Below, in pieces: positions 36,080 to 55,701 of a stretch of DNA of 64,000 nt. This DNA is from Mytilus edulis (taxonomy: Eukaryota), in contig NC_092355.1 of NCBI RefSeq assembly GCF_963676685.1, forward strand, positions 1,798,001 through 1,862,000. Reading direction: 5' to 3'. Within the stretch, counting starts at the first letter, position 1. Each line of letters opens with the position of its first letter. The translations under genes were made by a program, and so were the position numbers. The notes beneath the pieces were generated by a model. That model was not told the DNA's origin and did no database searches. It worked only from the letters and a program-made list of their open reading frames with translations.

Positions 36080-36688
36080 TCAAATGTGAGAAAAACGCTT
36101 GGTACTTTTTATATACTTTTGTACAGATAGAAAAACAATATCATTTTCTTCAGAACTCAAAGACTCATCACCAGAGAGCAATAACTCAATTGTAATATTG
36201 ACAGCAAAAACATTGATTTCATTTATCATTAAAAGCCTTTGTGATGAAAAATTGTTACAATATAATAAATAATGTTTAGCATCTTCATTGATGAAGCCAC
36301 ATAAACAATTGGCATCTTGTACTAAGTTTGCATTAAACAAATCAGATTGAAGAGTGCTACAATGGTTTCGCAACCTTGCATGTAATACAGATAGTAAGCG
36401 GTCTCCAGAGCAAAAATGCCTCGGAGGTTTTTTATTCTTATAGTATAACATGTGCAATTTGCTTTTAAATGATGAAAATGTAGGACTCTGTCTAATGATA
36501 ATATCTAAAGTGTTCCACAATGTTATGGATGCTGGGAAATAAGAATGTTGATAAACCGACAAACGATTCACTGGAATAGTGATATTGTGTCTGTTTCGTA
36601 AATTGTAATTACTAATATCAGACACAAATTCTGGAACCAAGTCATGTAAATAATCTGGAGCCTGATTGTTAATAATTTTATAAAACAT
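36080..36688 (-). pseudogene. C-terminal 202 aa of the CR1-type ORF2, cut off by the Polinton
   Basis: MFYKIINNQAPDYL..YNLR..SYFP..WN..HARLR..CLCG..EDAKHYLLYC; joins in frame to ..REVKKLAM of ORF 52807-55701. Confidence 0.9.
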
Positions 36689-36689
36689 G

Positions 36690-37652
36690 AGTAGTATGTA
36701 TATTACTATAGGGTTTTTGAATTTTATAGGGTTTTTACCATATTAGGTAATAACATGATGACATCACATTTTTTCACCTGTCGTACATGTTAACATACAA
36801 ACTATAGCGTTTTCCTTACCTGTTGATTCAAATACTTGAGCGTTTTACAAGATGATGTAATAACATGTTTTACTATCACGTTATACGTAGAAAACTCTCA
36901 AATGTTTGTCATTGTAGTACATGTTAGCATACGGAACCTTTACATGGTATATATGAAAGAGAGAGAAATTACAAAGTAAAAACAAATAATTATAAATTGA
37001 AATAAAATAAGTTAAATTTAAAAAAAAAATAATAATAAAAAAAAAAAAAAAAAAAAAAAAATAATCTAATGTATACACAAATCATTTACAATTTCTATGA
37101 AGATAGAGAAGGGTCTTTTTCCTTGGATTTTTCGTTATTTGGTTAAGAACATGAAGGAACTTTAAGAAATAGCATGTTTGTAACCATTTTCTAATTAGTA
37201 AAACAAATGATATAATCACCTGATCATGTCCAACATATTAAACCCTAAGGCGATACAACTAGAAATAAATGTTTATATCAAAATTAGTTTAGATATTAAA
37301 TGAAGGAAAAATAATCTAATAGTAATTATTAATATACTTTATATAGTTCGAGAAGACATTTTATATAAATAAATATCTGTCTTGTATCATTTAATTTTGC
37401 ACATTTAACTTGTTGTAGCTCGAGAAGAAAGTGTGTATAAATATATATACATATTTCACATTTATTTTGTTTTTATGAATTCAAAGTTTAGAACAGCATA
37501 AAAATAAATATTTCAGATGTCAATATATTTTGGTTGAATACTTGATAAATAAATGCTCTTAGTAAACAGTTTTTTCTTTTTCTTTAACTAACCTTAAATA
37601 CGTCTGTACAGTCCGAGATCCAAGAACGAAATGATTTTAAACAGGAAGTACA
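36690..37652 (+). repeat. Polinton left terminal inverted repeat
   Basis: Near-identical reverse complement of 51869-52828. Confidence 0.95.
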
Positions 37653-38147
37653 TGTACGTCATGTCCTGTACGTAAGTCACAACTTACGTTTCATTTGACC
37701 TCGACAACCCGGAATAGATGACATAAGTCATGTAATAGAAAATCAAGAGAGAAGCATACTTTGATGTCAAAGGATTACGTTTTGTCTGCACAGTGAACCC
37801 GGAAAGTCTGAATCTATGTACGTCATGTCCTGTACGTAAGTCACAAGCTACGTTTTATTTGACTTCGACAACCCGGAATAGATGACATAAGTCATGTAAT
37901 AGAAAATCAAGAGAGAAGCATACTTTGATGTCAAAGGATTACGTTTTGTCTGCACAATGAACCCGGAAAGTCTGAATCTATGTACGTCATGTCCTGTACG
38001 TAAGTCACAAGTTACGTTTTATTTGACCTCGACAACCCGGAATGGATGACATATTAAGTTATGCAATAGAAAATCAGGATAGAAGCATACTTTGATGTCA
38101 AATGCTTACGTTTTGTCGGCAAAGTGAACCCGGAAAGTCTGAATCTA
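37653..38147 (+). repeat. Three tandem ~164-bp units just inside the left TIR
   Basis: Units start at 37653, 37817 and 37981 (TGTACGTCATGTCCTGTACGTAAG...CCGGAAAGTCTGAATCTA). Confidence 0.95.
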
Positions 38148-38368
38148 TTGAGTAATACGGTAAAATTGATACCCGTAAAATCGATCATTAAGCAACTGTG
38201 CAGACAATTTTAGGGTATTATGGAAACATTACGAGTGAAAAAACAACCCATAGATACGGGGAAGCTTCCTCTACGACCAGACAACAATGTCACAAGACAT
38301 AAAACTATGTAATGAACCATGTATATATATCTCTCCGTTCCTACAAAATTATCATTCAACAATTTACC

Positions 38369-38941
38369 ATGAACGGAGACACTTCAAACCACGCTAGAAG
38401 ATGGAGGGTGTCCAAAACAGGCCCATTAGAAGAGGCAATACTTACCATAAAGTTAACAGAAAACAGACGATTGACAATGAAGACCTGGAATGGAGAAATT
38501 CGAGTCGACATACGAGAATGGGAATCCGACCACAAGGCCACCACAAGAGGGGTTAGTTTGTCAGCTATGCGTTGGAAAGTACTGCATGACTTTGCAGAGG
38601 ACATTGACCAGGCCATAGAAAAAATGTCCGGAAAGGAAGAAGTGGACGTCAAAATTCATTTAGGAGGGAACATATACCTTAGCGTAGACCACAGATTCAG
38701 CACTGTAGATATAAGAAAGTTTTGGAGACCTAAAGGAGAAACAGATGCACGACCAACCCGAAAAGGTATAGCGTTAACAACTGAGCAATGGCGTATTGTC
38801 CGAGAATCAATGGAGAAGGTGAATGAAAAAATCCCAGACATCGAAACCATGATACCGTGTTGGATGAGCGAAGACCATCAGAACCAGCTTGGAATGTTGA
38901 GATGTAGTGAATGCAATCCCGACGATTATATGAGCTATTGA
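38369..38941 (+). CDS. Tandem PC4 (Sub1/p15)-domain protein with a C-terminal Cys/His cluster
   Basis: Two PC4-like repeats (RVDIREW..RGVSLSAMRWKVL; TVDIRKFW..PTRKGIALTTEQW) and C-x5-H..CSEC. TATATATA (38322) and Inr-like TCATTC (38352) favour the ATG at 38369. Confidence 0.85.
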   Translation: MNGDTSNHARRWRVSKTGPLEEAILTIKLTENRRLTMKTWNGEIRVDIREWESDHKATTRGVSLSAMRWKVLHDFAEDIDQAIEKMSGKEEVDVKIHLGGNIYLSVDHRFSTVDIRKFWRPKGETDARPTRKGIALTTEQWRIVRESMEKVNEKIPDIETMIPCWMSEDHQNQLGMLRCSECNPDDYMSY

Positions 38942-39007
38942 AGAGATTCGTGGCTCTTTTTTTTATGTGTATCACAAAATAAAATATATAAAGACAATGT
39001 ATGACTT

Positions 39008-39448
39008 TTATTCTTTTATTGCACAAACAAACATAGATACAAACATGTCATTATAATTCAAATCGTCCATCTTGAATATATCGAGTATTCTTTTCATAGA
39101 ATGGTCATTTATCCTCAATACGGCATACACTATACAAAACTCTCAACACTTATTTGAGTTATAATTCTGAAGTCTTCTGGTGTTGTAAGCATATTGTGGT
39201 CCATTTGCAATCATAGTTTCAATAAACGGAGTCATCGGCTTGTTTCCTAGAGAATCGAAAAATTCAACTGGTCCTTGTAACGGAAAATACAACACTGTCC
39301 AATGCTTCCCCGGTTTATCACTTGGATCGGTATTAACAATAAAGAGACTTGGCTTTTTACCGATTTTTGTTGGTATTTCGTCTGCAGCACAGACAACACC
39401 AAAGTTGCAAAACAAGTTCAACAGTGTTCGTATTTGGTTGCTAAACAT
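39008..39448 (-). pseudogene. Adenain-like cysteine protease with one nonsense codon
   Basis: NTDPSDKPGKHW, FFDSLG, LQ..SNKC*EFC. TGA at 39143-39145 replaces the conserved Gly; the frame continues to DLNYND..TAA at 39008. Confidence 0.9.
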
Positions 39449-39449
39449 G

Positions 39450-40703
39450 TCAGATTGTAACGGCCCTTGACTGACTTATTTCAAGAAGCGATGAAAATCT
39501 AGCATACATGATTACTGTTATAGGTTCAGGTAACGGTGTTGCAAACTTCATTTCCACACGAGTTTGTCCCTTTTTCAAGATTGATGTGTCATCGCCGTCT
39601 TGAAAATCTATAACGTACATACAGTAGCCGTGCGTATAGTCGCCACGACTTATGTGTAATGCCGACGTAGTATTAGAGTACAAAGTTTGATACGCTTCTA
39701 CAAAGTTTCCAGCTGCGTAGTTAGGTACGAGGGGTCTTGATGGAAAATTCTGTCCATCAACCATGAAGTTCAAATAGTTGCAGTTGTAATGAAACATTTT
39801 AAACGGGTTTTTCTTGTAACTTCCATTGAACGACTCTGAGCTAACACATGATATGACTAAGGAATTGGGTACATTTCCAAGAAATAAATCTTCGGCACTG
39901 AACGAATAAATCCCGGCTGCTAGGCTATAGGTTTTAATGGTGGACTTCATGTAAGGATACAGTGCGGGGGATGCTTTCAATGCCTCGTTGTGCCCCAGCA
40001 TGATGCCAGAGTTCGGTTTAACTGTACACACCTTGAGATAGGCATCGACTATATGCACTTTGTAGTCAGGATTTGTTTCTGGAGACATGAGACGAAAAGC
40101 ATTCTTATGGGGCCACAGTTTGATCTGAATCGGCACTCCATTAAGGACGAGTCGTTTCTGTTGACACAAGTCCAAAAACAAGGGTCCTTCGTAATCGCAT
40201 ATTCGGCCTGATTGGGTTTCCTTGTATCTCATATATAATCCCGTATTAGGTCCGGATTCCGGATCTGGCTCATCAATGTCTGGTCCTCTGTCCTTATGAA
40301 AACCCCAGGCCGACATTTTACCATTCTGATCGTTTACGTTTGAATTTAAAATCATGTCAAAGTAAGCCTTATATGCATAATTAGTTCCAACATGGTTGAC
40401 GGCTTGGTGTTGGAGACTCATTTCCACTTGAGAAAATATACTGCTTAGAGGCACGTTTACAAGTCCTACCAAATTATCTGCAGTGACGGGAGATCCGTCG
40501 GAAGTTCTCAATTGCAGTTTGATGTGCAGTTTCAAGCGTTCTAAATCAAGATACGAGGTGGACGTGGCCGGTATGTTGAATTCAATGGGAGACTCCTCAA
40601 CGAGCTGATTGATGGGTCTGTATTCGATCCATTCCCGTCCCAGTAATCCAGTGTCCCGGGGTTGTCTATCGAACAAGGCAAGACTTTCACTCAATTTGTC
40701 CAT
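39450..40703 (-). CDS. Polinton major capsid protein (double jelly roll), 417 aa
   Basis: LALFD..WIEYRP..PIEFNIP..YLDL, SIFSQVE, YAYKAY, DLCQQKRLVLNGV, FNGSYKKNPF motifs and position in the element. Confidence 0.9.
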   Translation of the reverse strand: MDKLSESLALFDRQPRDTGLLGREWIEYRPINQLVEESPIEFNIPATSTSYLDLERLKLHIKLQLRTSDGSPVTADNLVGLVNVPLSSIFSQVEMSLQHQAVNHVGTNYAYKAYFDMILNSNVNDQNGKMSAWGFHKDRGPDIDEPDPESGPNTGLYMRYKETQSGRICDYEGPLFLDLCQQKRLVLNGVPIQIKLWPHKNAFRLMSPETNPDYKVHIVDAYLKVCTVKPNSGIMLGHNEALKASPALYPYMKSTIKTYSLAAGIYSFSAEDLFLGNVPNSLVISCVSSESFNGSYKKNPFKMFHYNCNYLNFMVDGQNFPSRPLVPNYAAGNFVEAYQTLYSNTTSALHISRGDYTHGYCMYVIDFQDGDDTSILKKGQTRVEMKFATPLPEPITVIMYARFSSLLEISQSRAVTI

Positions 40704-40754
40704 GGTATGTACAAGAAATATTTATAACAACACGTCTCCCTCTCTTATAGTAGT

Positions 40755-41030
40755 TCATCCATCGAAAACATCGCTAAATTTACGTTTGAGTGTTTTTCTT
40801 TTCAGATTTTTAATTTCTTCTTTGGCCATCTCGACAGCCTGTGCAGTTGGTGACACAATTTTCAGATCGGGTTCAGATGAACCCATTCCTTTCTGGTTGT
40901 CCTTGACGACGTATTGACCAGGGACATGGTTTCCAGACGTCATAGACAAAAAGTAATCCTTGTATTTATTGACGTTTGGTTCGAATGGCACCCAGGTCTT
41001 TGTGTCGTAATCGTAAACGTGTGTGGTCAT
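40755..41030 (-). CDS. Small Polinton protein with a basic tail (putative core protein)
   Basis: Tightly packed between mCP and MCP; QKGMG motif; VSPTAQAVEMAK helix; KRKTLKRK tail. Confidence 0.65.
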   Translation of the reverse strand: MTTHVYDYDTKTWVPFEPNVNKYKDYFLSMTSGNHVPGQYVVKDNQKGMGSSEPDLKIVSPTAQAVEMAKEEIKNLKRKTLKRKFSDVFDG

Positions 41031-41431
41031 ACTTGTTTCAAATGAAGAATGAAGGACACTGTTCCTAGTGCTTTAAATTCGGACAGGTGTTGGTCTCTTA
41101 TAGATATTTTGATGCAACTTAGATCCGATCGCGTAATTGCGAAATAGAAAGAATCCGTAAAGATCCAGTCTTTTTTATACACTGGAATTTCTCTCAGTAC
41201 AGCTAGTGTTTTATCTCCGACAAACGACTCCTCACAGAAATCAACACAAACAAAAACAGAGGTGACGTGCGGGGGAAACGCTATATCCAACGAACACTGT
41301 TTCAGACTGCATTTCCAATGTCCCTGTAAACGGATCGTCTGTGGTAGAGCAACCGTAAACTCTTGTGCATTGTTATGAGGAAAGTAATTCAGAGAGCAAT
41401 CACTCGATAGAAACAGGTAATGCTGGTTCAT
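41027..41431 (-). CDS. Minor capsid (penton) protein, compact 134 aa
   Basis: N-terminal YLFLSS..YFPHN..FTVALP..LQGHWKCSL and C-terminal IKISIRD..FILHLK, typical of Polinton mCP. Confidence 0.8.
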   Translation of the reverse strand: MNQHYLFLSSDCSLNYFPHNNAQEFTVALPQTIRLQGHWKCSLKQCSLDIAFPPHVTSVFVCVDFCEESFVGDKTLAVLREIPVYKKDWIFTDSFYFAITRSDLSCIKISIRDQHLSEFKALGTVSFILHLKQV

Positions 41432-41467
41432 TGCTGTTAATGGGGAAGTGTGTGGGTTTCGTTTTTC

Positions 41468-42570
41468 TTATACAAATTCCTTCACCTCACTCTCGAGAAT
41501 CCAAGAGTCGAATTTTTTAGGCCAATGCAACCACCTCACAAGCACTTCTTTCCTACCCCGGTATTTTCGTCGCTTGATAATTCGTTCCACTTTATATCGT
41601 GTGTTCTCATCCACCTTAACTCTTTGCAATTCTGGAAAATAATAGGTACCTTCTATCTCGTCGCCGAGCCAGTCTGTTAATCGGTATACCGGCGTATTGT
41701 CACGTCTGTAGCGGGACTGTATCTTAAATATTTCTCCAGTAAATCGTTGTTGGTATTCTCTCTCGAAGGTGCCCTCAAGTAAGTCAAACGGACCAGATCT
41801 CCGATTTTGAACATGTATTTTCTTTTTGCAACTCGTTTTTCCTTGTGGTACTTGGTGCGAATCAAATATTGTTGAAGTCTTACTTCGTCTTCGTTATCGT
41901 TGCCGACCTCCGAGGGTGACGTTCCTAGTGATCTATGGGTTGTATGGTTGTAGCTGTCAACGAGTGAATCTAAAACCAACCTGTATGATTTATTCTGGTT
42001 TTCTGAAATGTAGCGGTAAATTTTCATCTTCAGCGTTTTCTGTACCCTTTCTGCATAGGACGCCTTGACCTCGTTTTGAGTCAGGATGTGCTTGATGTTT
42101 TTGCCACGACAGAAGCGTTGGAAATTTCCGTTCGTGAACTCCGAACCCTTGTCTGTCCTCAAAACATTCGGAGTCCGACCGTTGCCGACAATTGATTCTA
42201 GAGCTCTTGTAACTTCGGAGCCGGTTTTCTGTTTCAGTAATCGACAATTCACAAATCTAGAAAAAATGTCAATGGTTACCAATCCATATCTGAAGCCCTG
42301 ATTGTCTTTTTGCAGGGAGGAGAGATCCATTAAATCGGCATCCCACTGACTGTCTATTCCGTCTACAACCACCCTATTTCTCCGGAATCGTCGACGTACT
42401 TGTCGGGTCAAGGTGTAAGCATCCTGTCCTTGTAACCATTGTCGTATGTGATACTTGCTGATGTCGTATTGTCCCTGACTTTTTGCAAAGTCGTACAGCT
42501 TTTCGACCCCCGAGAAAGACGCCGGACTTTTCGGATCGTAATAGATCGTTTTTAAATAGTCTTCCCACAT
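41468..42570 (-). pseudogene. Retroviral-like integrase with C-terminal chromodomain (one frameshift)
   Basis: YYDPKSPASFSG, WDADL, IDIFSR, TDKGSEF, AER. After a shift at ~41772 the frame reads FEREYQQRFTGEIF..YKVERIIKRR..VLVRWLHWPKKFDSWI to TAA at 41468. Confidence 0.92.
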
Positions 42571-42602
42571 GATTGATGTGTTGTGTATTTAACCCCCACT
42601 TC

Positions 42603-43130
42603 TTATAAATCACACAACAGCTCTAACTCCATTAACGTCGGATAAACATGATACTCTATATCTCTTTGGTCTTTCACCCCGGAGATCACCACCTTACCGG
42701 AATGAAAGCAAGTAAATCGCACGTGTCCCCTCGAAACGATAGCGCCAGGGAACAATTCCGGTTCATAATTTGCGGCAAAGGTATTCTTCAAGAGATTCAA
42801 ACGGAGGTGTCCGTTAAGACTGTGTGTCAACGACATGGTTAGTATCTTGACGTCGTGGAAGTTCACTGGCCATCCGTGTCTCTGAATCTGTCTTGCGTAT
42901 CGTCTCAATCTCAGCCTGGCTTCTTTTTCATCGAGGACAGCACCGTTGCAAACAATTTTCCCTCGCGCGTAAACCAAGCAGTTTCCTCCTATCTTTTTGT
43001 GTTTCCAGATAACCACATTGTGACGTTTCGCATCATACCTTACATTACACATGACCTTTTGCGTTAAGACAAGGAGGTCGATTGGACACCCGAGCTCCGC
43101 CGAACAGACGATGTTACTGACATGGATCAT
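42603..43130 (-). CDS. Divergent TATA-box-binding protein (TBP core, two repeats, 175 aa)
   Basis: SNIVCSAELGCPIDL, YDAKRH, GKIVCNGA, RRYARQIQRHG, NYEPELFPG and FHSGKVVISG align colinearly with the TBP core. First ATG is at 43130; the track start is a TTG. Confidence 0.93.
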   Translation of the reverse strand: MIHVSNIVCSAELGCPIDLLVLTQKVMCNVRYDAKRHNVVIWKHKKIGGNCLVYARGKIVCNGAVLDEKEARLRLRRYARQIQRHGWPVNFHDVKILTMSLTHSLNGHLRLNLLKNTFAANYEPELFPGAIVSRGHVRFTCFHSGKVVISGVKDQRDIEYHVYPTLMELELLCDL

Positions 43131-43165
43131 GGCTATCGTCTGGTTCAAACTTCTCAGTATTAGTG

Positions 43166-43177
43166 TTTATATAAGAG
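43166..43177. promoter_or_regulatory. Bidirectional TATA element between the TBP and ATPase genes
   Basis: TTTATATAAGAG reads TATATAAA toward TBP (ATG 43130) and TATATAAG/TATAAGAG toward the ATPase (ATG 43213), centred in an 82-bp gap. Confidence 0.75.
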
Positions 43178-43212
43178 CGACACACCGTACAGAGTACCTT
43201 TCTGTCTACATC

Positions 43213-43866
43213 ATGAAAACGCTTGTACCATTCGAAATGTGCAGTAGTATGATTATATCTGGAGCGACGGGAAGTGGGAAAAGTACCTGGATATACAATT
43301 TTTTGCAAAATATCGACGACATGTATACAGACCAAAGTCCGGAGAAGGTACTGTACTGCTATGGGATCTACCAAGACCTGTTTATAGACATGGAAAGAAA
43401 TTGTCCGAGATTATCGTTCCATCAAGGAATACCTACGCGAGAGGAGATAGAAGATTTCACCGCCAATGGCAAACATAATCTGATCGTGTTGGACGACCTC
43501 ATGCACGTGGTCGTGGACAATGCCGAAATGGAATTGCTTTTCACTCAGGGGTGTCATCACAGGAAGCTCTCTGTGATATTTGTCACCCAGCAACTATTTT
43601 ATCAGGGTAAGAAAGCACGGACCATTGCCCTCAATACATGGTACATGGTGCTACTAAAGAACTTACGGAACGTGGCCCAGGTTTCCACCCTGGGACGTCA
43701 ACTGTTTCCGGGGAAAGGTAACGCCTTAGCGAATGCTTATCAAGATTGTCTGAAAACGCCATATGGTTATTTAGTTGTAGATATGGCGCCGAATACAAAC
43801 GATCTATATCGACTCCGGACCAACGTTTTCCCGGGAGAGGACCCCCTCATTTATTCCGCATTATAA
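43213..43866 (+). CDS. A32/FtsK-like genome packaging ATPase
   Basis: Walker A GATGSGKS, Walker B LIVLDD, HHRKLSVIFVTQ, PYGYLVVD. Real start is probably the ATG at 43213. Confidence 0.93.
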   Translation: MKTLVPFEMCSSMIISGATGSGKSTWIYNFLQNIDDMYTDQSPEKVLYCYGIYQDLFIDMERNCPRLSFHQGIPTREEIEDFTANGKHNLIVLDDLMHVVVDNAEMELLFTQGCHHRKLSVIFVTQQLFYQGKKARTIALNTWYMVLLKNLRNVAQVSTLGRQLFPGKGNALANAYQDCLKTPYGYLVVDMAPNTNDLYRLRTNVFPGEDPLIYSAL

Positions 43867-43901
43867 GAGGAATCTTTGTGACTGTGTATGTTTTGGAAAG
43901 T

Positions 43902-44216
43902 ATGAGCGATACCATTACAAAAAACGGCAGTTTCCTGAAGTTCTTTTTAACGGCAAACACGCTTCAGAAAAAAGTCATGTTACAGAATGTATCGCTTCAA
44001 CAGACCAAAGCCCTGTCGGAAATAGCGGTCAATTTGCTAAACGATACAGTTGATTTGCCAGCCCAAACGAAAATGCAACTCAAAAGATATAAGAAGGTAT
44101 ATCGGTTAATAGGCAGCAGACGAACGAGCTTGAAAAACAAACAGAACGTTTTAAGGTCCTCCTATCGTGCCATCACATTAATGTTGCAAGGGTTCTGGTC
44201 TCATCTTGGATTATGA
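43902..44216 (+). CDS. Conserved small basic Polinton protein (PW/PM-type; name uncertain)
   Basis: ALSEIAVNLL..LKRYKKVYRLIG..SLKNKQ pattern; TATAAGAG 40 bp upstream of the ATG. Confidence 0.7.
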   Translation: MSDTITKNGSFLKFFLTANTLQKKVMLQNVSLQQTKALSEIAVNLLNDTVDLPAQTKMQLKRYKKVYRLIGSRRTSLKNKQNVLRSSYRAITLMLQGFWSHLGL

Positions 44217-44632
44217 GTTCCGTACAGAAGGACGTTTTGATACCGTACGACAGATACCAGCAGTTAATCAAAAGATCTACCAAATATCAAATTCAATCGG
44301 GCCAGGGACAACGTTTAGAGGAAAGGTCCATTGTAGACGCCATTCCGACTGATCAGACCCATCGCGCCCAGGAGATTTTACGACTCATTCGGGACAGTCC
44401 AGAACAACCCTTGAACTGGAATGAAAACGGAGAAATCATTTACAGGGGGACATTGAAACGGGGATCGAGCATCACGAAACTTTTAAGACATCTAGTGAGT
44501 GGATCTAAAACAACCAAACCTATTGGACAACGAGAATTCCTCAAGAGTCTGAAAGAAATGGGCGTCACTGTTAGTTTGATAACCCAATCGATCCCAAGAC
44601 CACCGGGAAAGCGAAAATGGATGACCTTATAA
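44213..44632 (+). CDS. Conserved Polinton protein (PZ-type; name uncertain)
   Basis: VLIPYDRY, WNENGEIIYRG..GSSITKLL, PIGQREFLKSL. Confidence 0.75.
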   Translation: MSSVQKDVLIPYDRYQQLIKRSTKYQIQSGQGQRLEERSIVDAIPTDQTHRAQEILRLIRDSPEQPLNWNENGEIIYRGTLKRGSSITKLLRHLVSGSKTTKPIGQREFLKSLKEMGVTVSLITQSIPRPPGKRKWMTL

Positions 44633-44667
44633 GAGTGGTGAGGGCCTGTATTCATCATTTCCACAGA

Positions 44668-45048
44668 ATGGAGGATTACGAGAGAGTGGAACGGGACTTC
44701 AAATTGCATTTCAATGTCATAAAAATTATTGGTGTTCTGTTAATGCTATACAGTACGGTGATAACGATTTTGTTGGGAATAAACGTGAAGCCTGGCGGTG
44801 TTTCAATGGACTGTACCTTACGTTTAAGAAATAGCAAAGGCTGTCAGCCCAGAGACCAGTTTCCACTGACAAACGGTGCATATGTGACTGTGTGTACAAG
44901 AAGAGGCGTGGACATAAGACATTATATAAACGACAAAGTTCCAGCAGAGGGTGTGCACCTGAATCAAAGACAGTGGGTTTATTTGAAACGTTCAATGGCT
45001 CACATCGATCGTGCCATATCGACGGGAAACAATACCTCAACCCTGTGA
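44668..45048 (+). CDS. Transmembrane-anchored PC4-like protein
   Basis: Hydrophobic IIGVLLMLYSTVITILLGINV followed by FPLTNGAYVTV..VDIRHY..GVHLNQRQWVYLK..IDRAI (PC4 pattern). Confidence 0.7.
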   Translation: MEDYERVERDFKLHFNVIKIIGVLLMLYSTVITILLGINVKPGGVSMDCTLRLRNSKGCQPRDQFPLTNGAYVTVCTRRGVDIRHYINDKVPAEGVHLNQRQWVYLKRSMAHIDRAISTGNNTSTL

Positions 45049-45214
45049 TTTTTTTTTTTTTTTTTTTTTTTTTTCTCATATGAAAAAAGGAGAGACGAGA
45101 TGTATTTATGTACCATACATGTTTAGTTTTTTTTAGCTGTACCATTATTAAAGAATAGAAAACGAGGTGTTCATTTTGTATTATCGCACAAATAAATAAA
45201 AACACAGAGTTTAT

Positions 45215-48200
45215 TCAAAATCCGTACGGAATCGTCGTCATGTCATCCTTGACGACTCTCTTCGTATATACCACTTGGTATTTCTTTGATTGTTCTCTGT
45301 TGTAGATAAGGGACATTGGCCGATTCCTGACGATCTTTGTCTTGTCCACGAGCTCGATCTTCCTCTTCTTTGTGGATGGTTCTTCGTCCTCGTTCGGAGA
45401 GAACAACAGGCCCTTGATGGCGTCGAAATTGACGAGTTTTGAATTCTCGTAATTCAACGAGAATCCACGGACCTTGCATACTTCCTGACCATCGGATCTT
45501 CTGTAGGCGTAATTTTTGGGGCCACCGCTAACGAATTCCTCGATGTAGTGTCCCTCCAATTCGTCGGTCAATTCTCCGAGGTAATCTCCCAGTGATAATG
45601 TCTGTGCATTCCGCCTTTCGATATAGATGACGGAATCTGTGTCGTGGTACAACACATTTTCTTTCAACTGGTCGAGAACATCGTACAACTTCAGACGGGC
45701 CCAGGATGTCGTGAAAGTGGCCAAGAAGATGTTCGTCTTCGTGTCTTCGTCAACGAAGTCGTTCACGTGAATCCACGATACCTGGACGATGTGGTCGTTG
45801 ACGATTTCAAAATTTAAAACTTGTTTCGTTGGATCGGTAAGCATCTGAAAAAATTCATCCATCTGGTTATCGTAAAAAAACATCACTTGTGTCAAGTTCA
45901 GTCTTTGGCCGAATTTGCCCCAGAACGAATTGAGACAAAGCTTGGCCACAGCACGCAGTCCTGGGTTTTTCTCTATGGCATCCCAGTCCAGACGAACCCC
46001 CTCTTTCTGGAAATAACTTTCGATGTACGTCTTCTTTTGATCCGTAGTCCTACACCAGGCGGGAAAGTCGGACGCTTCCTGTTTGTATTTTAGAAAAGTG
46101 TTGATATAGCGAGCAAACAGTCCTCCGTCATTGGTCTCGTGGTCGTACATTGTAGTTTCCGGCCAGTGATATACTTCATACATTTTCACCACGGTGTATC
46201 CCTTTTCCATTGCTTTCATGATTTCGGGAGTGGTCCAGGTTCCAAGCAAACACCTCTGTTCGTCTGTGTGTTGACAAGGTGATTTAGACTCCTGGTCGGC
46301 ACATGTTTTACACAGCGGGAATTTCAATTTGCCCTGGTTTTTATACGGCAGAACTGGAAAAAACAGTTTTCTTGGAGGCAACATTTTTACCAGAGCGATA
46401 CCGAAGTAATCCTTCATCTCACTGAAATCGCTGTGAATAATATCTGGATGACCCACGGGGTACCGACACGTCTTGTTCGTCCAAGGGTATAGGCTCGTGA
46501 AATCGACGTATCGTATGAACTCCCCATCGGTTACCTCGTGATGCAGCCGGATTGCATTGGTTCTTCCACCATAGAAGCTATCTCGAGCATCCAAAGGTGG
46601 CTGTAAATCGAGGGAATTGACGAACCGTCTCATTTGTTCGTTTTCTTTCAGTTTCGATTGGAAATCGTGCTCCCAGATCGACACGTATTTGTAACCGGCA
46701 TTTTCGATGGTCTGCTTTCTGATTTTGGTCAGGTAATACAATTCTATCATCGTCTGCCTCGTCCCTGGAAGTCTGGTCTTGTCCCGTTCGTTCGGCATAC
46801 AGACTGGACACCCGTGCCACCTGCAGCCTAAAAACTCGTATACAGTATTGGTCTCTCTGCAATACCCATCGAAACGAATCCGTCGGCTGGGAAGACTGAC
46901 TTCACCACCATTCAAAGCGTGTTGGATCTTTTCCAGCTTTCCCTGTTTCTTGTTCTTTTCCATCACCCATTCCAACCATTCAATGCTCTCTTTACTGTAG
47001 TTGTCCAATCTTCGGTATCCTGCAGCCGGAATCAGAGCAATGGGCGATTTCACGAACTCGCGTTCGTGTTCTCGTATGCTCATCTCTTGGAGATCTGCAT
47101 GCGAGTACCATCTGTCTTCGTATCGAACGTCTATGTCGGACAGGTAGGTGTGCCATCCCAGGGATTTCTTTACTCTGACGTCCTCGTCGCCTTGGTGTTT
47201 TCTACATTCAACCACAAGATTGTGTGTGTGCAAGAGATCTTTTGGACTCAACCATCTATCGACGTACCATACTTCTCCATGTCCGTTGACCCATCGTGTC
47301 GGCAATGCGAGATCTGTGTTGGTTACTTAATGAACTCGGTGTTCCTCTTGAAGAAAACAGGTTCTAAATATGGTCATACACATACTGGCAATCGTCACAG
47401 AGTCGAAGGCATCCACGTCATTGTTTGTCTGTGTAAAGATCAACTCACGGAACTTTAAACAGGCCTTCCTCGGGATGGTTACGTCGTCACGACAGTAAGC
47501 CTCGATCTCTTTTGCAAAGTCAAATATGGCACCCTTTGATTTCTTTTCCTTGTACCATTTCAAGAAGTCGTGTCTATTTTCAACGTTCATGCTGTTCATG
47601 CCGTAGTCCTGCGGAGCTGGATATTCACCAATGTAGTTTTGATTTTCAATCGTGTTGAAAAATGAGGGAAGTAACCTTTCCTGATTTCCTCGTCTTCTGC
47701 TGTCAGGGAGAACGTTTTCGGCAGTTTTTTCAACGACATTGGTAAAAAATTCAGAGAGTCGACCAGTCTGATATGTAGCCCCTTGCCGACGTACATGCTC
47801 ATTATCTTGGAGCCGTTGTATATAATGTGTGTCGGTGTCATGCAGTTGTCCACCAGATACCTCAGGATGAAGGTGCCGTCGTATCCTTGTAGGTTGTGGG
47901 CAACGACTTTAGCTCCGAAATGTTTTTCTTGAAATAGCCAACGTCCGAAATGAACCGCTGACTCATATCCCTTGAAAACCATTTCTCGGTTGCCACAGGT
48001 GTCGGCACAAGGTGACCTGATGTACGACCCTTCTTTCTTCTTTTCACATTTCGTGCACCTGGTGCCACAGTTTTTGCACCGGACCTCGATCGGCTTCTCC
48101 TGACAGGCACTACAGCTAGTATGGGCGACTACAAAGTTGGGTTTGTGCTGGTTTCGTCCACACCAGTCCGTACTGCAATGTTGGCAGACTCTGCTTCCTT

Positions 48201-51092
48201 CTTTCGGCATGTAATTTTCCCTGCACTGCACTGGTGACGACTGGTCACATTCGAAGTCAAAAAAGATGAAAAATTTGTCTTTTATTTCCTTCTTTAGACT
48301 CCTCATGTAACACCTGTGGTTTCCGAAGACGACCTCAGTACAATTTTTACAGGTCCACTCGCCGCACTCGTGGGGATTTTCCAGCAAGTTTCTGTTTCTC
48401 CGGTCGACTGTTTTATGGCACTTGATGCAACGCCAATACTTGGAACATTCAGATAGACTGTCTCTGGCGTTCAGCGTTTGACGTTTCCCCTTCTCCTCTG
48501 GTGTCAACTTGTGGTACTGGAAACACTCCATAGAACGACATTCCATACGGCAGGACCTGCAAGATACAGGATCATCCATCACCACACATTCGTCACTTCG
48601 CTTACAAATTAAGCAGGGTCCACCACATGCATGCTTTGCGACGTTACTGTACGGTTTCAGACATTTCATACAAAAGTAGTTGTTTGAAAAGAAACCGGTT
48701 ATCGTATTGATGGCGTGGAAATGGTTGCCGTCCACCAGATAAAGAAAGATACATGGTCTGTCCGACTGTGCTCCTATTCGACAGAATCTGTTGCCTAACG
48801 CTGAATCGATGACGAGTATTCGAAGGTGTAAAACGTCTTCGAATACTGAGATGTCTGTGATGGTACAGGGTCGGTCCAGTGGCAAACCTACTTTACTTGT
48901 TAGGGCAGCTGCCAACTCCCTCTGTTCTCTGCTATTCTTTTTTCGTAGATTTTCGTAGTGGGTTGACGGCATCTTCCCCGTGTCTAATATCAGTTGCAAA
49001 TTAGACCTTCCTTTCCTTTCTTTCGTTATTTTCCGCCATTCTCCTCGAGGACAGACATTCTGCTTGGCCCAACAGACAGCGATGGCCCTGGCAAGACATA
49101 AATTGTCATCGTTTACAATTTCCACGATGGCTTTTTTTCTGGACAGCGAATTGTTATCTCCTCTCAGCTGTGTAAAATGTAATCTTTTACCCCCTTTAGG
49201 GATATCGATGACACCCACGTCTATTCTGAAGTCCACGTTTAAGGCCAGTTCTTGGTGACTGTTTAGAACTTTCATCACGTACTCCAGGACACAGGAGGGT
49301 GTCAGCTCACCAATAGGTCTTAATGAAACGACTATGGGTTCCACGTCTGGATGTTGGATGACCACTCTACCCAGGTCTTTCGTATCCATTCCTCGGGTCG
49401 CCTCACGAATGACGTCTTCAAACATTTTCATGAGGTTAGCATGAATATCTAACAGACGCTGGCCCCTCCATTTCTCATTAAATGTAACCCCGTATACATT
49501 TTCCATCGCCTTGTTTTTAAATGTCTTCGACGATTTTAGGTGTATTTCATAAGCGTCTTCGTCCCCGCACCCTTCTTGTTGAGACGTGTCGTGGCTAAGC
49601 GGGGAGCTCGATGGCACTGCTTCGTCCCCGCACCCTTCTTGTTGAGACGTGTCGTGGCTAAAATGGGAGGTCGATGGCACTGCTTCGTCAGGAGTACCTC
49701 TTTCTTTTGCATGTTCTTCTTTGTGCTTCACTAGATCTTCGTTCTTTTTGAATCGTGCGAAACAAACACTGCATTGGACTGTTTTCCCGCCTGTCTTCGG
49801 TTTACCTATACCACAAAATAAAATAAATCTGTTGTAAGTTATCGTTTATCAATTACTGTTCATTCAGAAAATATTTATTAATCAATTTTAGACTTAAATA
49901 CGATTTTTATCTTAACATTTTTCAGAAACATCCTGTTTGATGCACATTAAATTTTTCAAAATTATACGGGTTTCAAATATTGCTTCTACCACTCTTTCCC
50001 ATTTAAAAAAAATATAGTCTTTGAAGGCCGTACGGTGACCTATAGAAACAATTACAATTAGACTGTAATCAACTTACCACTTTTATTATCCATTTTTTCT
50101 TCAATACTTTGGGCACATTGGTATAGCAAAGTGTTTTCTCCCTCATCTGGAAAAAAGAACTTAGAATTAAAATACATGTAATCTTACTCCCAACAATGAT
50201 GCATTACGTTTTAATACATGTATTCGTATTCTATAAGATATGTCTCTATGTATAATACGTATTTGCTAAAATTTATTATTTTCAGAAAAATCCTGTTTGA
50301 TGCACATTAAATATTTTAAAATACGGGTTTCAATTATTGCCACTACCACTCTTTCCCCATTAAAAAAATATAGTCTTTGAAGAAAAGAAAAACATTGTGT
50401 ATGTTACCTTCAGTAAACAAACAATTACAATTAGACTGTAATCAACTTACCACTTTCATTATCCATTTTTTCTTCAACACTTTGGGCACATTGGTATAAC
50501 AGAGTGTTTTCTTCCTCATCTGAAAAAAAAGAATTTAGAATTAAAGTAAATGTAATCTTACTCCCAACAATGATACATTACGTTTTAATACATGTATTCG
50601 TATTCAATAAGATATGTCTCTATGTACATGTATAATACGTATTTGCTAAAATTTATATAATTGTAGGAGCATACTTCATTTGCATAATTTAAGATGATAG
50701 GGATAACAAAGAAAAGAAACTCACCAAATAAGATTTCCATTTCTGCGTCTTTCATCCTTGAACAATAATCACAGTGTATCTTTAAGTGTTCCTTACATCT
50801 AAAAGCAAACACATTTAAAGTTATTAAAGACATACACTCTAAATTAAGATTATAAACGCAATGGTTCTAAAAATAAATAAATGTTTGTACTTTAACATTT
50901 ATAATATATATACTAGACTTGCATGATTTTTTTTAATTATTTTTCACACAAATTATTTTGTTACTAGACATTACTTTATTTTAAAAAAAATGTGCAAAAA
51001 TTGAAAAACATTTAAAAAAATACTTACATATTGCTTTCTATGTACTCGGCATCGGCAAACAATTGATCGTTATCTTCAGGGGAAAAATCCAT
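45215..51092 (-). pseudogene. polB: Protein-primed family B DNA polymerase polyprotein, spliced (exons 51092-51028, 50798-50725, 50519-50451, 50146-50078, 49805-45215); one frameshift and one stop
   Basis: C2H2 finger; vOTU-like DNLCLARA..NHFHAI; exonuclease FFDFE / AHNLQGYD / YCRDDV; VSR-like DGY..YEFLGCRWHGC; polymerase DFTSLYP, KLCLNSFWGKFGQ, YHDTDS. Frameshift at ~47660 and TAA at 47327-47329. Confidence 0.92.
49915..50657. repeat. ~365-bp tandem duplication containing one 69-nt PolB exon per unit
   Basis: TTCAGAAA.ATCCTGTTTGATGCACATTAAA at 49921 and 50281; exons at 50078-50146 and 50451-50519. Confidence 0.9.
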
Positions 51093-51868
51093 TGGTTTTT
51101 TTTCTTGTTCGTGAATAAATTGAACGTTATCGGTTGATTCGAATTCTGTTGTAGAATTTTGAGAGTTTTGAATATAATTCTAACTTATATAGGTGATATT
51201 ACAGAAGAAAGGTGACATTATGATTAATGATTTCTTTGCTATAGAAGCATAATTACAACACAAAGAGAGATCAAATACATGCCGATAGGAACAGTATACG
51301 GTCAAATAAAGTACAATTTGTGACAAACGTCCAGAAAATGACTTACATGTTCTTCCTGTTTAAGATCATTTCATATTTGTATTCGGATTGTACGACAGAA
51401 TATATTGTTAGTCTTTTATTTACAGAAATGATATTAACAAACGTGTGTTTAGTCTAATATTATTTTTTTTCCATGTTCAAATCTTGAATTTTCTTACGGG
51501 TTCATACAATTTGAAAAAAAAATGTTAAAAGAAACATATATTTTATATAAACCTTCTTTTTGAAGGTATACACATTTATTTTGTGTATTTATTTTGACAT
51601 TTAGTGCTATGTAAATATATTTATATTCTTTTTTCATTTTATATCCAAATTAATTTTGAGAAATACTTTTTCTTGACTTGTACATGTATAGCCTAAAGGT
51701 TAAAATTGTTACACTTTATCCTGGGATTATATTCTTTGGTTCTCTAATTAGCTAATTGGTAATGTAACAACCATGTCATTACATCTTCTTACAGTACTTT
51801 CGTGTATTTGACCAAAAATCCAGACCCACAAACCTCCTTTTCTATCTATAAAGAACATATTAATCATC

Positions 51869-52828
51869 TGTACTTCCTGTTTAAAATCATTTCGTTCTTG
51901 GATCTCGGACTGTGCAGACGTATTTAAGGTTAGTTAAAGAAAAAAAAATGTTTACTAAGAGCATTTATTTATCAAGTATTCAACCAAAATATTTTGACAT
52001 CTGAAATATTTATTTTTATGCTGTTCTAAACTTTGAATTCATAAAATCAAAAAAAATGTGAAATATGTATATATATTTATATACACTTTCTTCTCGAGCT
52101 ACAACAAGTTAAATGTGCAAAATTAAATGATACAAGACAGATATTTATTTATATAAAATGTCTTCTCGAACTATATAAAGTATATTAATAATAACTATTA
52201 GATTATTTTTCCTTCATTTAATATCTAAACTAATTTTGATATAAACATTTTTTTCTAGTTGTATCGCCTTAGGGTTTAATATGTTAGACATGATCAGGTG
52301 ATTATATCATTTGTTTTACTAATTAGAAAATTGTTACAAACATGCTATTTCTTAAAGTTCCTTCATGTTCTTAACCAAATAACGAAAAATCCAAGGAAAA
52401 AGACCCTTCTCTATCTTCATAGAAATTGTAAATGATTTGTGTATACATTAGATTATTTTTTTTTTTTTTTTTTTTTTTTTTATTATTATTTTTTTTTTAA
52501 ATTTAACTTATTTTATTTCAATTTATAATTATTTGTTTTTACTTTGTAATTTCTCTCTCTTTCATATATACCATGTAAAGGTTCCGTATGCTAACATGTA
52601 CTACAATGACAAACATTTGAGAGTTTTCTACGTATAACGTGATAGTAAAACATGTTATTACATCATCTTGTAAAACGCTCAAGTATTTGAATCAACAGGT
52701 AAGGAAAACGCTATAGTTTGTATGTTAACATGTACGACAGGTGAAAAAATGTGATGTCATCATGTTATTACCTAATATGGTAAAAACCCTATAAAATTCA
52801 AAAACCCTATAGTAATATACATACTACT
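51869..52828 (-). repeat. Polinton right terminal inverted repeat
   Basis: Reverse complement of 36690-37652; ends in ACTACT. Confidence 0.95.
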
Positions 52829-55701
52829 AACATGGCTAACTTTTTTACCTCCCGCCTTACGCTTAATTTTTCCCATCCCGTCTCCCTGTAAATAGCGTTT
52901 CGTCTAGCATAACTTGGTAATCCAGTAACTACGCGAGCAGCCTCGATTTGAATATTTTCTATCCGATCAGAATTTGTGTTCCCACAATTATCCCAAACTT
53001 CTGATGAATACTCAAGTATCGGACGAATAAAAACCATATAAATTTTTTCCAAATAATCCCTTTTTAATCGATATTTTAGTTTGCGTAAAACATTAAGCTG
53101 CTTCGTAGTTTTCTCAATCAGTTTATCAACATGCTTATTCCATTTACAATCATTACTAAATATGACACCTAGGTGTTTGTGCGCACTAACTGGTTTCAAT
53201 GTAGCACCTCCAAAATCAAAAGTAATATCACTGTATATATTTTTCAAACTAAATACCATAATATCAGTTTTATTAGGGTTAAACTTCACTAGCCATTTTT
53301 CTGACCACTTACTTAAATAATCAAGATCTCTACTGATTGAATTTTTCAAAGTGGATTCATCAGGTGCAGTATGACCTATTGAAGTATCATCTGCAAAAAG
53401 CCTTCCGAATCCAGACATACCACCAGCTATATCATTTATGTATATTAAAAACAACAAGGGTCCTAATACTGACCCCTGAGGCACACCAGCGTTAAGTTTT
53501 CCAATGTTTGATAACGAATCTTTTATGACAACTCTCTGAGATTGTCTAGACAAGTAACTTGTCAACCAACATAGCAAGTCTCCTTTAATACCATATTTTT
53601 CAAGTTTATGTAATAAAGCCTTAATCCAAACAGTATCAAATGCTTTGCTTATATCAGCAAATGTAATGCTTGTTAAAAGCTTTTCATTTAGTGCACTCGA
53701 AATTTTGTTATACAATTCTATTAACTGATGCGAAGTTGAGTATCCTGGAATAAATCCGGATTGATACTTGTATAATAATTTATTTCCATGTAAATGGTTA
53801 AAAATATTTTTGAAAACAATCTTTTCTAAGACTTTACTCACACATGACAATAAGGAGACTGGCCTGTAGTTAGACGGTAATGACTTGTCACCACTTTTGA
53901 ATAAGGGAATAACATGTGCAATCTTCCATTGGTCTGGAAATATTTTGTCATTTAAAGATTTGTTAAAAAGTAGACATAATGGTTTGGAAATTTCATTTTT
54001 AACGGCAAGTAACATTCTGTTGCTAACGATATCTGGCCCAACAGCTTTATTAACATCGAGCGTTGAAAGAATATCAAGTACATCTTGTTCACTAACTACA
54101 ATTTGTGAAATAAATTCAAGACATCGGTCGTCAAATTCCGGCAAATCTTTACTTGCGCCATCTAAATTAGAAATTGAACAAAAATATTTATTTAAAATGT
54201 CGGACTTTTCGGTTCCCTCATACGCAAGTTTAAAGTTGTGATCAAGGTCCGTCATGGGTGGTAAATCATGAGACGGTGTATCACTTTTAATTAACATGTT
54301 AACCGTTTTCCAGTATTGTTTACAGTTGGTAACTTTTAGTTCATCTAAATTTTCATTAATACTGGTAAAAAAATATTTTTTAGCTTGCTTTTTCAAGTTA
54401 TTTACTTTGTTTCTTTGTTGTTTAAATTTCTTTTCTGCGGATGCACTATTTGAGCGAATAAAAATATTACGAAGCCTGTCGCGTTTTCTCAATTCACGCC
54501 GCAAATTTGAATCATACCAAACTTTATCGTCACATCTTATAGTTACTTCCCTTGTAGGTATGCACTCGGAGGCTATATTAAGAAATGAGTTCGTGAAATT
54601 AGTCGCAGCAACATGAACATCACTTGCATCAGAAATTAAAAATTCCCAATTTGTTTCAACTACTTTTTGTTTCATAAGGTCATAATCACCTTTTTTGTAA
54701 TCCCATATCGATCTATTATAAGTTCGTCTTTTACTAAAACAACAATTAATTGTGACGTATGTTCCATCATGATCACTAATACCTCTATCAAAAGGTATTG
54801 TGTCTTTATCTAAAACCGGTATCGAATCAGTGACTAAAATAGGATCAAGTAAAGACGTGCTACCTGTTCGTGTGTCAAAATGAGTAGCTTTGTCAATTAT
54901 GTTAACAAGGCCATTGATGAAAAAAATATCTCTTATATTTGACGGTAGATCTGACATAAAGTTTTTATTCAGGTCACCTAAGCAAATTATGTTATTATTT
55001 TCATCCATGGCATTTTTCAACATTTGATCAAAATACTGCCAGAAATAAACTGAAGATTGCCGTTCCGACCTATAATTGATGTTTATCAATATTGATCGCA
55101 ATTTAGTTTTTAACTCAAACCACATACTCTCAAGTTGGCAATTCTCCAAATCATGTCGACGAGTTATGCGAACGTAACTTTTATAATACATAATAATGCC
55201 ACCCCCATGAGAATTTCTTTCTTTTCGAACTGGTATTTCAAAACCGGATATATATAAATCAGAATCTGTAATATTTGAGTCTAAATGGGTTTCTGTCAAG
55301 AATACGACATCGTAATCTTCAATAATATCGACAATATAATTCAGTTTATTTCTAAGGCTTCTTATATTACCATGGAAAATTGACAATGTTTTCTCAGATA
55401 TTTCTGGTGTGCGCTCAGGACCCGGGTTCGGTTCGATGTCACCACATATTAGCAACAACCATAATAACAGTATGTACAATGAAATCATATAAGCAGAAGA
55501 TCTGTATAAATTAAAAATACATAGTTTGAGTCTTGAAATATGCGTAAATAAAACGGCAAGTAATTCATACACTGAGAAAGATACAAATGTTTTTCTCAAA
55601 CAACCCAGACTTATCTTGTGATAAAACAGTCCTATTGTCATTCTATATGCTACGATGTCATTACCCATTGTCAAATACAAGACAATACATGTAAATGACA
55701 A
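52829..55701 (-). pseudogene. CR1-type ORF2 (2A-like peptide, APE and RT), N-terminal 957 aa
   Basis: CGDIEPNPGP, NIRSL, LTETHL, GDLN, SDH, GPD, NYRPVSLL, DISKAFD, GVPQGSVLGP, FADD. Confidence 0.93.

Follow-up and report, generated by a model that had tools for sequence, protein, structure and literature searches.

A gene for a TATA-binding protein (TBP) lies among the viral core genes of a Polinton in the genome of Mytilus edulis, and it raises the question of what a mobile element would do with a TBP of its own and which promoters such a protein would serve. We addressed this question in a window of 64,000 nucleotides, to which all positions below refer unless another contig is named, and in related elements from the same genome and from metagenomes.

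The Polinton (Maverick/adintovirus type) is 16,139 bp long (36690..52828) and was recognized by its terminal inverted repeats (TIRs), its AGTAGT termini, and its gene set. The TIRs measure ∼960 bp (left, 36690..37652, forward strand; right, 51869..52828, reverse strand), agree at 949 of 959 aligned bases, and are bordered on either side by a 6-bp target site duplication, AACATG (36684..36689 and 52829..52834, both forward). In common with known Polintons, Mavericks, and adintoviruses, the element has long TIRs (AGT termini), a 6-bp duplication, and genes for a protein-primed PolB (pPolB), an rve integrase, a double jelly-roll (DJR) capsid protein, an A32-type packaging ATPase, and a protease, the ATPase and protease matching Pfam below the cut-off. 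It is inserted in ORF2 (endonuclease and reverse transcriptase [RT]) of a LINE, which is split into 36080-36688 and 52807-55668 (reverse), and the two halves join across the target site duplication. A second, apparently intact LINE lies just left of the element (29079-35409, forward), with a 435-amino-acid ORF1 and a 1,261-amino-acid ORF2 (endonuclease, RT, and zf-RVT).

From left to right, the first gene encodes a tandem PC4-domain protein (38312..38941, forward; PF02229, E value 3e-20), and this gene also occurs in a Polinton without TBP. The stretch before it (37652-38148) holds three 164-bp tandem units with CRE-like and CATG-containing motifs recognized by eye. On the reverse strand follow an adenain-type protease (39143..39448), truncated to 101 amino acids compared with 160 in a relative and 49% identical to a homolog on C6 that itself matches Peptidase_C5 below the cut-off; an intact DJR major capsid protein (39450..40703), which matched Atlas structures of DJR clusters with TM-scores of 0.87 to 0.97; orf91 (40755..41030), a small ORF of the capsid module known from its conservation in relatives; and a product of 41027..41431 that, from its position and conservation and with no Pfam match, we take to be a minor capsid protein. 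The integrase with its chromodomain (41468..42570, reverse) is split in two, with PF00665 and PF00385 in different frames. TBP sits between the integrase and the A32 ATPase (43213..43866, forward), the latter being intact, 53 to 61% identical to its relatives, and matched by Pox_A32 at an E value of 2e-4, below the cut-off. The TBP and ATPase genes stand head to head with an 82-bp gap. Further right on the forward strand are orf104 (43902..44216), a basic, all-helical protein without a clear fold match; orf139 (44213..44632), a conserved Polinton ORF; and orf143, read from its second ATG (44668..45048), with a hydrophobic stretch and a weak PC4-like end whose homolog matches PC4 below the cut-off. 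The pPolB gene (45215..49506, reverse) is split over three frames, PF03175 being matched in three pieces, and upstream of it are a 63-bp tandem pair (49557-49682) and a ∼370-bp duplication (49919-50626). With an integrase broken into two frames, a PolB broken into three, and a truncated protease, the present copy is defective; its TBP, capsid, and ATPase genes are intact.

The TBP gene itself (42603..43130, reverse) is an uninterrupted, intronless ORF for a core-only protein of 175 amino acids. A Pfam scan matched it to two repeats of PF00352 (E value 5.1e-26; 90.8 bits against a cut-off of 22.9), human TBP aligned to its residues 4 to 164 (E value 1.6e-24), and an AlphaFold2 model from a 62-row alignment had a pLDDT of 97. 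By Foldseek, the model has the TBP saddle, with TM-scores of 0.84 to 0.92 and 30 to 35% identity to eukaryotic TBP structures and with cellular TBPs ranked first; viral TBP-like models matched at 8 to 18% identity only. The reading frame, the two Pfam repeats above the cut-off, the recovered fold, and the neighboring genes all agree with the initial annotation, which had called an intronless, core-only TBP amid viral core genes from the letters alone. With cellular TBP (PF00352; PDB 1cdw and 1ytb) the protein shares the two-repeat saddle (TM-score ∼0.9), the Y-E-P-E stirrup, the basic helix 2, and N69, at ∼35% identity and without an N-terminal extension or introns.

Residues were numbered as in yeast TBP through the human TBP alignment, yeast L67 being residue 4 of the query protein. 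The N lobe carries F99>H37, F116>Y54, and T124>N62; the C lobe carries N159>T98 and V161>S100 and is also changed at R196, V203, L205, and T215 (T215>S). The set of four intercalating phenylalanines is incomplete, F190 and F207 being retained and F99 and F116 replaced, and the canonical pairs N69/N159 and T124/T215 are both broken (N159>T, T124>N, and T215>S). The TFIIB-contact glutamates E186 and E188 are present as E123 and E125, and the basic helix 2 patch K133/R137/R141/K145 is present as R72, R76, R80, and R84. All residue calls made in the initial annotation held in this alignment, including the retained YEPELFPG stirrup and basic helix. Its description of the changes as asymmetric is right for the phenylalanine pair of one subclade and does not extend to the DNA face as a whole, since both lobes are about equally altered: among 14 positions per lobe that we take to be DNA facing in TBP-DNA structures, 6 are kept in the N lobe and 7 in the C lobe.

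Does this gene belong to Polintons or to the host? A protein search of the 1.37-Gb assembly gave nine matches at eight loci, including the query. At four of the seven other loci (C6, C10, C2, and C7), an integrase gene lies just downstream of TBP; the C11 locus adjoins PolB and orf104 homologs, and on C2263 and C9 remnants are left, close to pieces of PC4. Most Polintons of this genome lack TBP, as judged from the 5 of 100 scored capsid matches (four loci) that have one nearby. No near-identical copies of the element were found in the same assembly; a rearranged remnant (G000:C11:53.33-53.35 Mb), ∼91% identical over PolB and PC4, is without the central genes, TBP among them. The presence of TBP in other elements, on which the earlier reading depended, is borne out by the metagenome loci: in all 11 contigs, a Polinton integrase gene is found no more than ∼2 kb from TBP. 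The viral contigs scanned contained no relative, and a scan of prokaryote genomes gave two short matches that we took as chance. Named relatives are bivalve proteins, and by our own count ∼90 of the best 150 representatives favor the family profile, built partly from the same 150, over the vertebrate TBP core. At the RNA level, one 212-nt contig from one metatranscriptome covers TBP at a depth of 2.2 and gives no strand, start, or level; a run on guessed RNA data gave contigs over PC4, the capsid gene, and small ORFs and none over TBP.

Individual relatives offered further observations. P0168 (UniRef K1QC83) from Magallana gigas, named "TATA box-binding-like protein 2," is probably a Polinton gene, as are P0164 ("TBP," Mytilus edulis) and P0004 (hypothetical, Pinctada). 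Many contigs of the oyster cluster are ∼5.49 kb long. In P0018 (283 amino acids), TBP runs directly into integrase sequence, as a fusion or in a frameshifted copy. Upstream of TBP, L002 encodes a protein that by eye is CARD-only-like (1995-2405, reverse) and L013 one that by eye is macro-domain-like, with no Pfam match (336-974, reverse).

The host has TBP and TRF2-type genes of its own at separate, intron-containing loci, and the host TBP exons are ∼77 to 92% identical to vertebrate-type TBP, compared with ∼35% for the Polinton TBP. The initial annotation had proposed a phylogeny with metazoan TBP, TRF2, and TRF3 and viral TBPs. In a quickly built tree of 118 rows, with long branches and with the Polinton context checked for 12 of the 83 family rows, the Polinton family is a clade by itself: a branch with an SH-aLRT value of 97 separates all 83 from the rows of cellular TBP, of TRF2 type, and of archaea. 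TRF2/TBPL1 and TRF3/TBPL2 are paralogs of TBP, and TRF2 lacks the intercalating phenylalanines. The two TRF2-type rows, named by eye, group with cellular TBPs and animal TBPs stand with them, away from the Polinton family. Selection was estimated by Nei-Gojobori comparison of 13 TBP pairs. The dN/dS ratio was 0.10 to 0.17 in nine pairs (Fisher P < 1e-11) and 0.21, not significant, in one near-identical pair; three pairs, including both with the present copy, were saturated. Values elsewhere in these elements were 0.08 to 0.23 for the integrase, 0.08 for the ATPase, and 0.18 for the minor capsid gene. Judged by these ratios, TBP is constrained like core genes in the relatives; the dN/dS comparison proposed at the outset thus revealed purifying selection there, the present copy being saturated. 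Recent capture from the host is very unlikely given the distinct clade, the linkage to Polintons at 11 of 11 loci, and the purifying selection.

Residue counts over the 83 family rows, set beside 36 cellular rows, gave a picture of which surfaces are held. The phenylalanines are mostly kept (F99 in 61 of 83, F116 in 65, F190 in 68, and F207 in 57), as are two other DNA-face residues, N69 (73) and L114 (62). The stirrup is kept (Y185 in 71 of 83, E186 in 59, P187 in 78, and E188 in 73), and so is the basic helix (R137 and R141 in 76 each and K/R145 in 66). N159 survives in a single row and is T in 72, V161 is S or T in 79, and T124 is N in 35 and H in 14. V203 is changed family-wide, L205 is kept in 8 rows, P191 in 32, and E93 in 11. 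Overall, conservation within the family is poor on the DNA face and better on the protein-contact surfaces. H99 and Y116 occur together in four rows only, a subclade that includes the query, whereas all 11 other context-checked members keep both F99 and F116 (as do 61 and 65 of 83 rows singly) and their elements bear the same TAAGA core. The loss of the N-terminal phenylalanines, which the initial annotation had linked to altered specificity, is therefore not supported as the key feature; the family-wide changes lie in the center and the C lobe. The proposal of altered specificity on the 3′ side of the box otherwise fits the candidate box described below, whose departure from TATAWAWR is a G in the 3′ half, at position 6. 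At E93, the query and the 11 other context-checked rows have R. In part of one report, E93R is described as lowering TFIIIB assembly and Pol III transcription (PMC5526994), and the change predicts poor use of the Polinton protein in Pol III transcription.

The candidate box came from comparing the sequences that precede core genes in Polintons with and without TBP. In the initial comparison, TAAGA was prominent in the former (28 of 68) compared with the latter (1 of 29). The final set omitted the near-duplicates C10, L042, L045, and C5_20.66 and added eight new TBP-less elements, TBP-less status being based on genome-wide searches and a local profile over 20-kb or 6.5-kb stretches. With the motif and the late and early gene classes chosen after the initial comparison, RTAAGAR lies 25 to 55 nt upstream of the start in 24 of 34 virion, packaging, and integrase genes of TBP-carrying Polintons. 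It precedes 0 of 48 starts in the 14 Polintons of this genome that have no TBP (including 0 of 30 in the eight elements added after motif discovery) and 0 of 20 TBP, PC4, and PolB starts. By sequence, this is a non-canonical, TATA-like box confined to late-type genes. Ten of the 34 late starts have no box, and some of these follow a boxed gene or are decayed. The consensus is YRTAAGAR, with Y at position 1 in 22 of 24 and AR after TAAG, and 21 of 27 sites lie 30 to 42 nt from the ATG, with an abrupt lower limit near 30 nt. A search for an initiator ∼30 nt downstream of the box revealed no peak. Although 14 of 32 boxes overlap a stop codon, the box is not a stop-codon artifact, since 18 of 32 are not stops of a long frame and 24 of 34 upstream TAA triplets stand in box context compared with 0 of 56 in the control.

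The coding core of the present element has nine TATAAGAR sites where 0.58 would be expected (no more than 4 in any of 300 simulations). Every one is on the coding strand, and six of them are 37 to 46 nt before a start. Across the whole window RTAAGAR is at chance level (48 versus 52); the enrichment is local to the element. Boxes of the form TATAAGAG precede the ATPase start by 43 nt (43170..43177, forward), the major capsid start by 46 nt (40742..40749, reverse; not a stop codon), orf104 by 40 nt (43862..43869, forward), and the second ATG of orf143 (44668) by 40 nt (44628..44635, forward). Another TATAAGAG box is 72 nt before orf91 (41095..41102, reverse), beyond the usual spacing, and is shared by two related elements. 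The form TATAAGAA occurs 37 nt before the integrase start (42600..42607, reverse), where it overlaps the TBP stop codon, and 41 nt before the putative minor capsid start (41465..41472, reverse). The PC4 gene has no upstream box. The TBP gene is preceded at 43 nt by a canonical TATA sequence, TATATAAA (43166..43173, reverse), a presumptive promoter element that overlaps the ATPase box by 4 bp. All 13 TBP genes are without the box at 25 to 55 nt; 9 of 13 have TCA[GT]T 14 to 45 nt upstream, 4 of 13 have a strict TATAWAW, and in three cases the TATA lies 29 to 31 nt before TCA[GT]T. A CACGTG E-box is present 82 to 95 nt before the TBP start in four related elements, L041, L043, L044, and L051.

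In the TATA register, base 6 of the box is G, and bases 1 and 2 are relaxed. Polar residues at 122 and 124, which we take to be base contacts, could read this G. The box varies across TBP-carrying lineages (TATAAGAG, CATAAGAG, and CGTAAGAA), and in L041, L043, L044, L046, and L051 all nine boxes have G at position 2, compared with 1 of 23 elsewhere. The scored TBPs of that group (L041, L043, L044, L045, and L046) have T203 together with S or C at 205. In excerpts of a study of yeast TBP, the mutant TBPm3 (V203T, L205V, and I194F) binds TGTA and wild-type TBP does not, and wild-type TBP accommodates G at positions 3 and 6 (PMC1636458). Some Polinton TBPs thus resemble TBPm3 in sharing V203T and occurring with G2 boxes. 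Since G at position 2 abolishes binding by wild-type TBP, the CGTAAGAA boxes would need a nonhost reader; the TATAAGAR of the present copy might be read weakly by host TBP, as the wild type tolerates G6. The metagenome contig L046:552-10612, which has CGTAAGAA boxes, holds an unbroken PolB (1,555 amino acids), ATPase, integrase, TBP, and the start of a capsid gene.

In the capsid tree (SH-aLRT, 100) and the ATPase tree (99), the elements with TBP group as a single clade, which they do not in the PolB or integrase trees. TBP and box therefore move together with the virion module, as would suit a late role. Given the single capsid/ATPase clade, the association of box and TBP counts as one evolutionary event, and a Fisher test on the counts overstates it; the link between G2 and T203 is also one event on the tree. 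The TBP-carrying elements at C6:49.41 Mb, C10:11.19 Mb, C11:35.12 Mb, and C2:52.31 Mb (G000) have distant PolB genes, 25 to 33% identical in short pieces, and three of them share the capsid and ATPase lineage of the present element. Distant PolB genes with a common capsid and ATPase lineage are a pattern pointing to module exchange.

A Polinton TBP with a candidate cognate promoter is, on these sequence comparisons, real and conserved. We hold with moderate confidence that the protein would serve as the late-gene selectivity factor of one animal Polinton lineage, acting through host TFIIB and Pol II. The promoter sequence of the TBP gene suggests that host TFIID and Pol II would transcribe it early, from an ordinary TATA/Inr promoter. 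From the co-occurrence of box and gene and from the residue changes, the Polinton TBP would then bind YRTAAGAR ∼31 to 48 nt upstream of capsid, ATPase, and integrase genes through a DNA face remodeled at 122/124, 159, 161, 203, and 205, which implies a preference for YRTAAGAR over TATAAAAG. The retained residues suggest that host TFIIB, and hence host Pol II, would be recruited through E186/E188. Among the ORFs of the element, no Pfam match to a TFIIB-like protein was found, and no viral polymerase was detected either; orf104, the one ORF folded for this comparison, had a best Z score of 5.8 and no match to a TFIIB-like cyclin fold. In the present copy, where the late box of the ATPase overlaps the TATA of the TBP gene, binding of TBP could, speculatively, damp its own transcription as a feedback switch. 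Several points count against the late-factor reading: box and TBP belong to a single clade, the gene classes were set post hoc, host TBP might read the TATAAGAR of the present copy, no initiator peak was seen, TATA geometry would leave 5′ untranslated regions of ∼1 to 17 nt, 10 of 34 late starts have no box, 9 of 13 TBP genes have no strict TATAWAW, the DNA face varies within the family, and the RNA evidence amounts to one 212-nt contig.

Leader length also bears on another interpretation, in which a helper virus would supply an RNA polymerase that uses RTAAG as its initiator and TBP would have some other task. The baculovirus late motif (A/G)TAAG acts as an initiator and equals the core of the box, and virophages share late promoters with giant viruses. 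An initiator at this position would yield ordinary leaders of 30 to 40 nt and would agree with the absence of a visible initiator downstream of the box. However, conservation spans an 8-bp TATA register (Y1 in 22 of 24 and AR after TAAG), the spacing edge is sharp near 30 nt, the TBP-less Polintons of the same host have no box, and no helper virus was identified, and we regard this interpretation as improbable. We consider it very doubtful indeed that a host TBP or retrocopy was recently captured as neutral cargo, the box being a by-product of stop codons. The defective state of the present copy, the 14 of 32 boxes that overlap a stop codon, and the database names "TBP" and "TBP-like 2" for relatives would suit that account, but it is largely refuted by the separate clade (SH-aLRT, 97), dN/dS values of 0.10 to 0.17, linkage to Polintons in 11 of 11 cases, and the TAA control (0 of 56), and the host TBP and TRF2 genes are separate intron-containing loci, the TBP exons being ∼77 to 92% identical to vertebrate-type TBP compared with ∼35% for the Polinton protein.

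It is also possible, if rather unlikely, that a host factor (TBP/TFIID or TRF2) reads the box as a lineage trait, and that the Polinton protein acts away from promoters, either tying up TFIIB, TAF1, Mot1, or NC2 as a decoy or binding nucleic acid in some other way. In favor of this reading are the protein-contact surfaces, better conserved than the DNA face, and the restriction of box and TBP to one clade. In the portions covered here, host-type TBP tolerates G6 (PMC1636458), and a phenylalanine-poor TBP from Giardia binds single-stranded DNA (PMC12209930). Against it stand the CGTAAGAA boxes, whose G2 abolishes wild-type binding in the same excerpts (PMC1636458), the 14 TBP-less Polintons that have the same host factors and no box, and the general retention of N69, L114, and the four aromatic positions, which binding to DNA would require.

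The late-factor reading has a parallel in the herpesviruses. KSHV ORF24, a TBP mimic of beta- and gammaherpesviruses, works with a TATTWAA late box; it is multidomain, is one member of a complex of six factors, makes direct contact with Pol II, and is modeled as incompatible with TFIIB, according to the parts of the report drawn on here (PMC12529657). In both systems, a viral TBP fold would serve late genes through a TATA-like box of non-canonical sequence and the Pol II of the host, with early genes under host-type promoters, whereas the Polinton protein is a bare 175-amino-acid core that keeps the TFIIB stirrup and has no Pol II-binding domain. The resemblance is one of analogy, not membership. 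The TBPs of large double-stranded DNA viruses have the fold in common with the Polinton family. In the sections consulted of the analysis by Ravarani et al. (2020, PMC7221094), which assigns both stirrup glutamates to the contact with TFIIB, these glutamates are variable in the large-virus proteins (∼40% at the first), the N-lobe basic signature is lost, and most are co-encoded with TFIIB; the Polinton family, in contrast, keeps both the stirrup glutamates and the basic signature. It differs from cellular TBP in N159T and V161S/T, in the variable T124, V203, L205, and P191, in the usual loss of E93, and in being borne by a mobile element. In Starrett et al. (2021, PMC8502044), the legend to Fig. 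5 defines a "TBP" label in a map of MELD viruses and related elements; the portions of the text covered contain no analysis of the TBP gene or its promoters. In the literature surveyed, which included term look-ups in PMC11131425, PMC11071296, PMC11161782, and two 2026 preprints and was confined to text as distinct from figures, supplements, and Repbase, neither a family of TBPs in Polintons nor the box turned out to be described.

For the bivalves, these results mean that proteins entered in databases under the names "TBP" and "TBP-like 2" are probably encoded by Polintons. For the study of TBP itself, the family offers dozens of natural variants of the DNA face, some with matched boxes, on which the TBP recognition code may be tested. 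We see about an even chance that one small gene would give a 16-kb animal Polinton a late program of its own with host TFIIB and Pol II and no other viral factor, box and TBP changing together. The family would then amount to a library, made by nature, of TBPs with altered specificity, and it would be evidence that animal Polintons run a viral cycle that is staged and autonomous. If true, this would be a third viral solution, and the smallest, beside the herpesvirus vTBP complex and the TBP-TFIIB pairs of giant viruses. For the gene regulation of animal Polintons and the case for a true viral cycle, a TBP together with a confined box would provide a direct model of an early-to-late switch.
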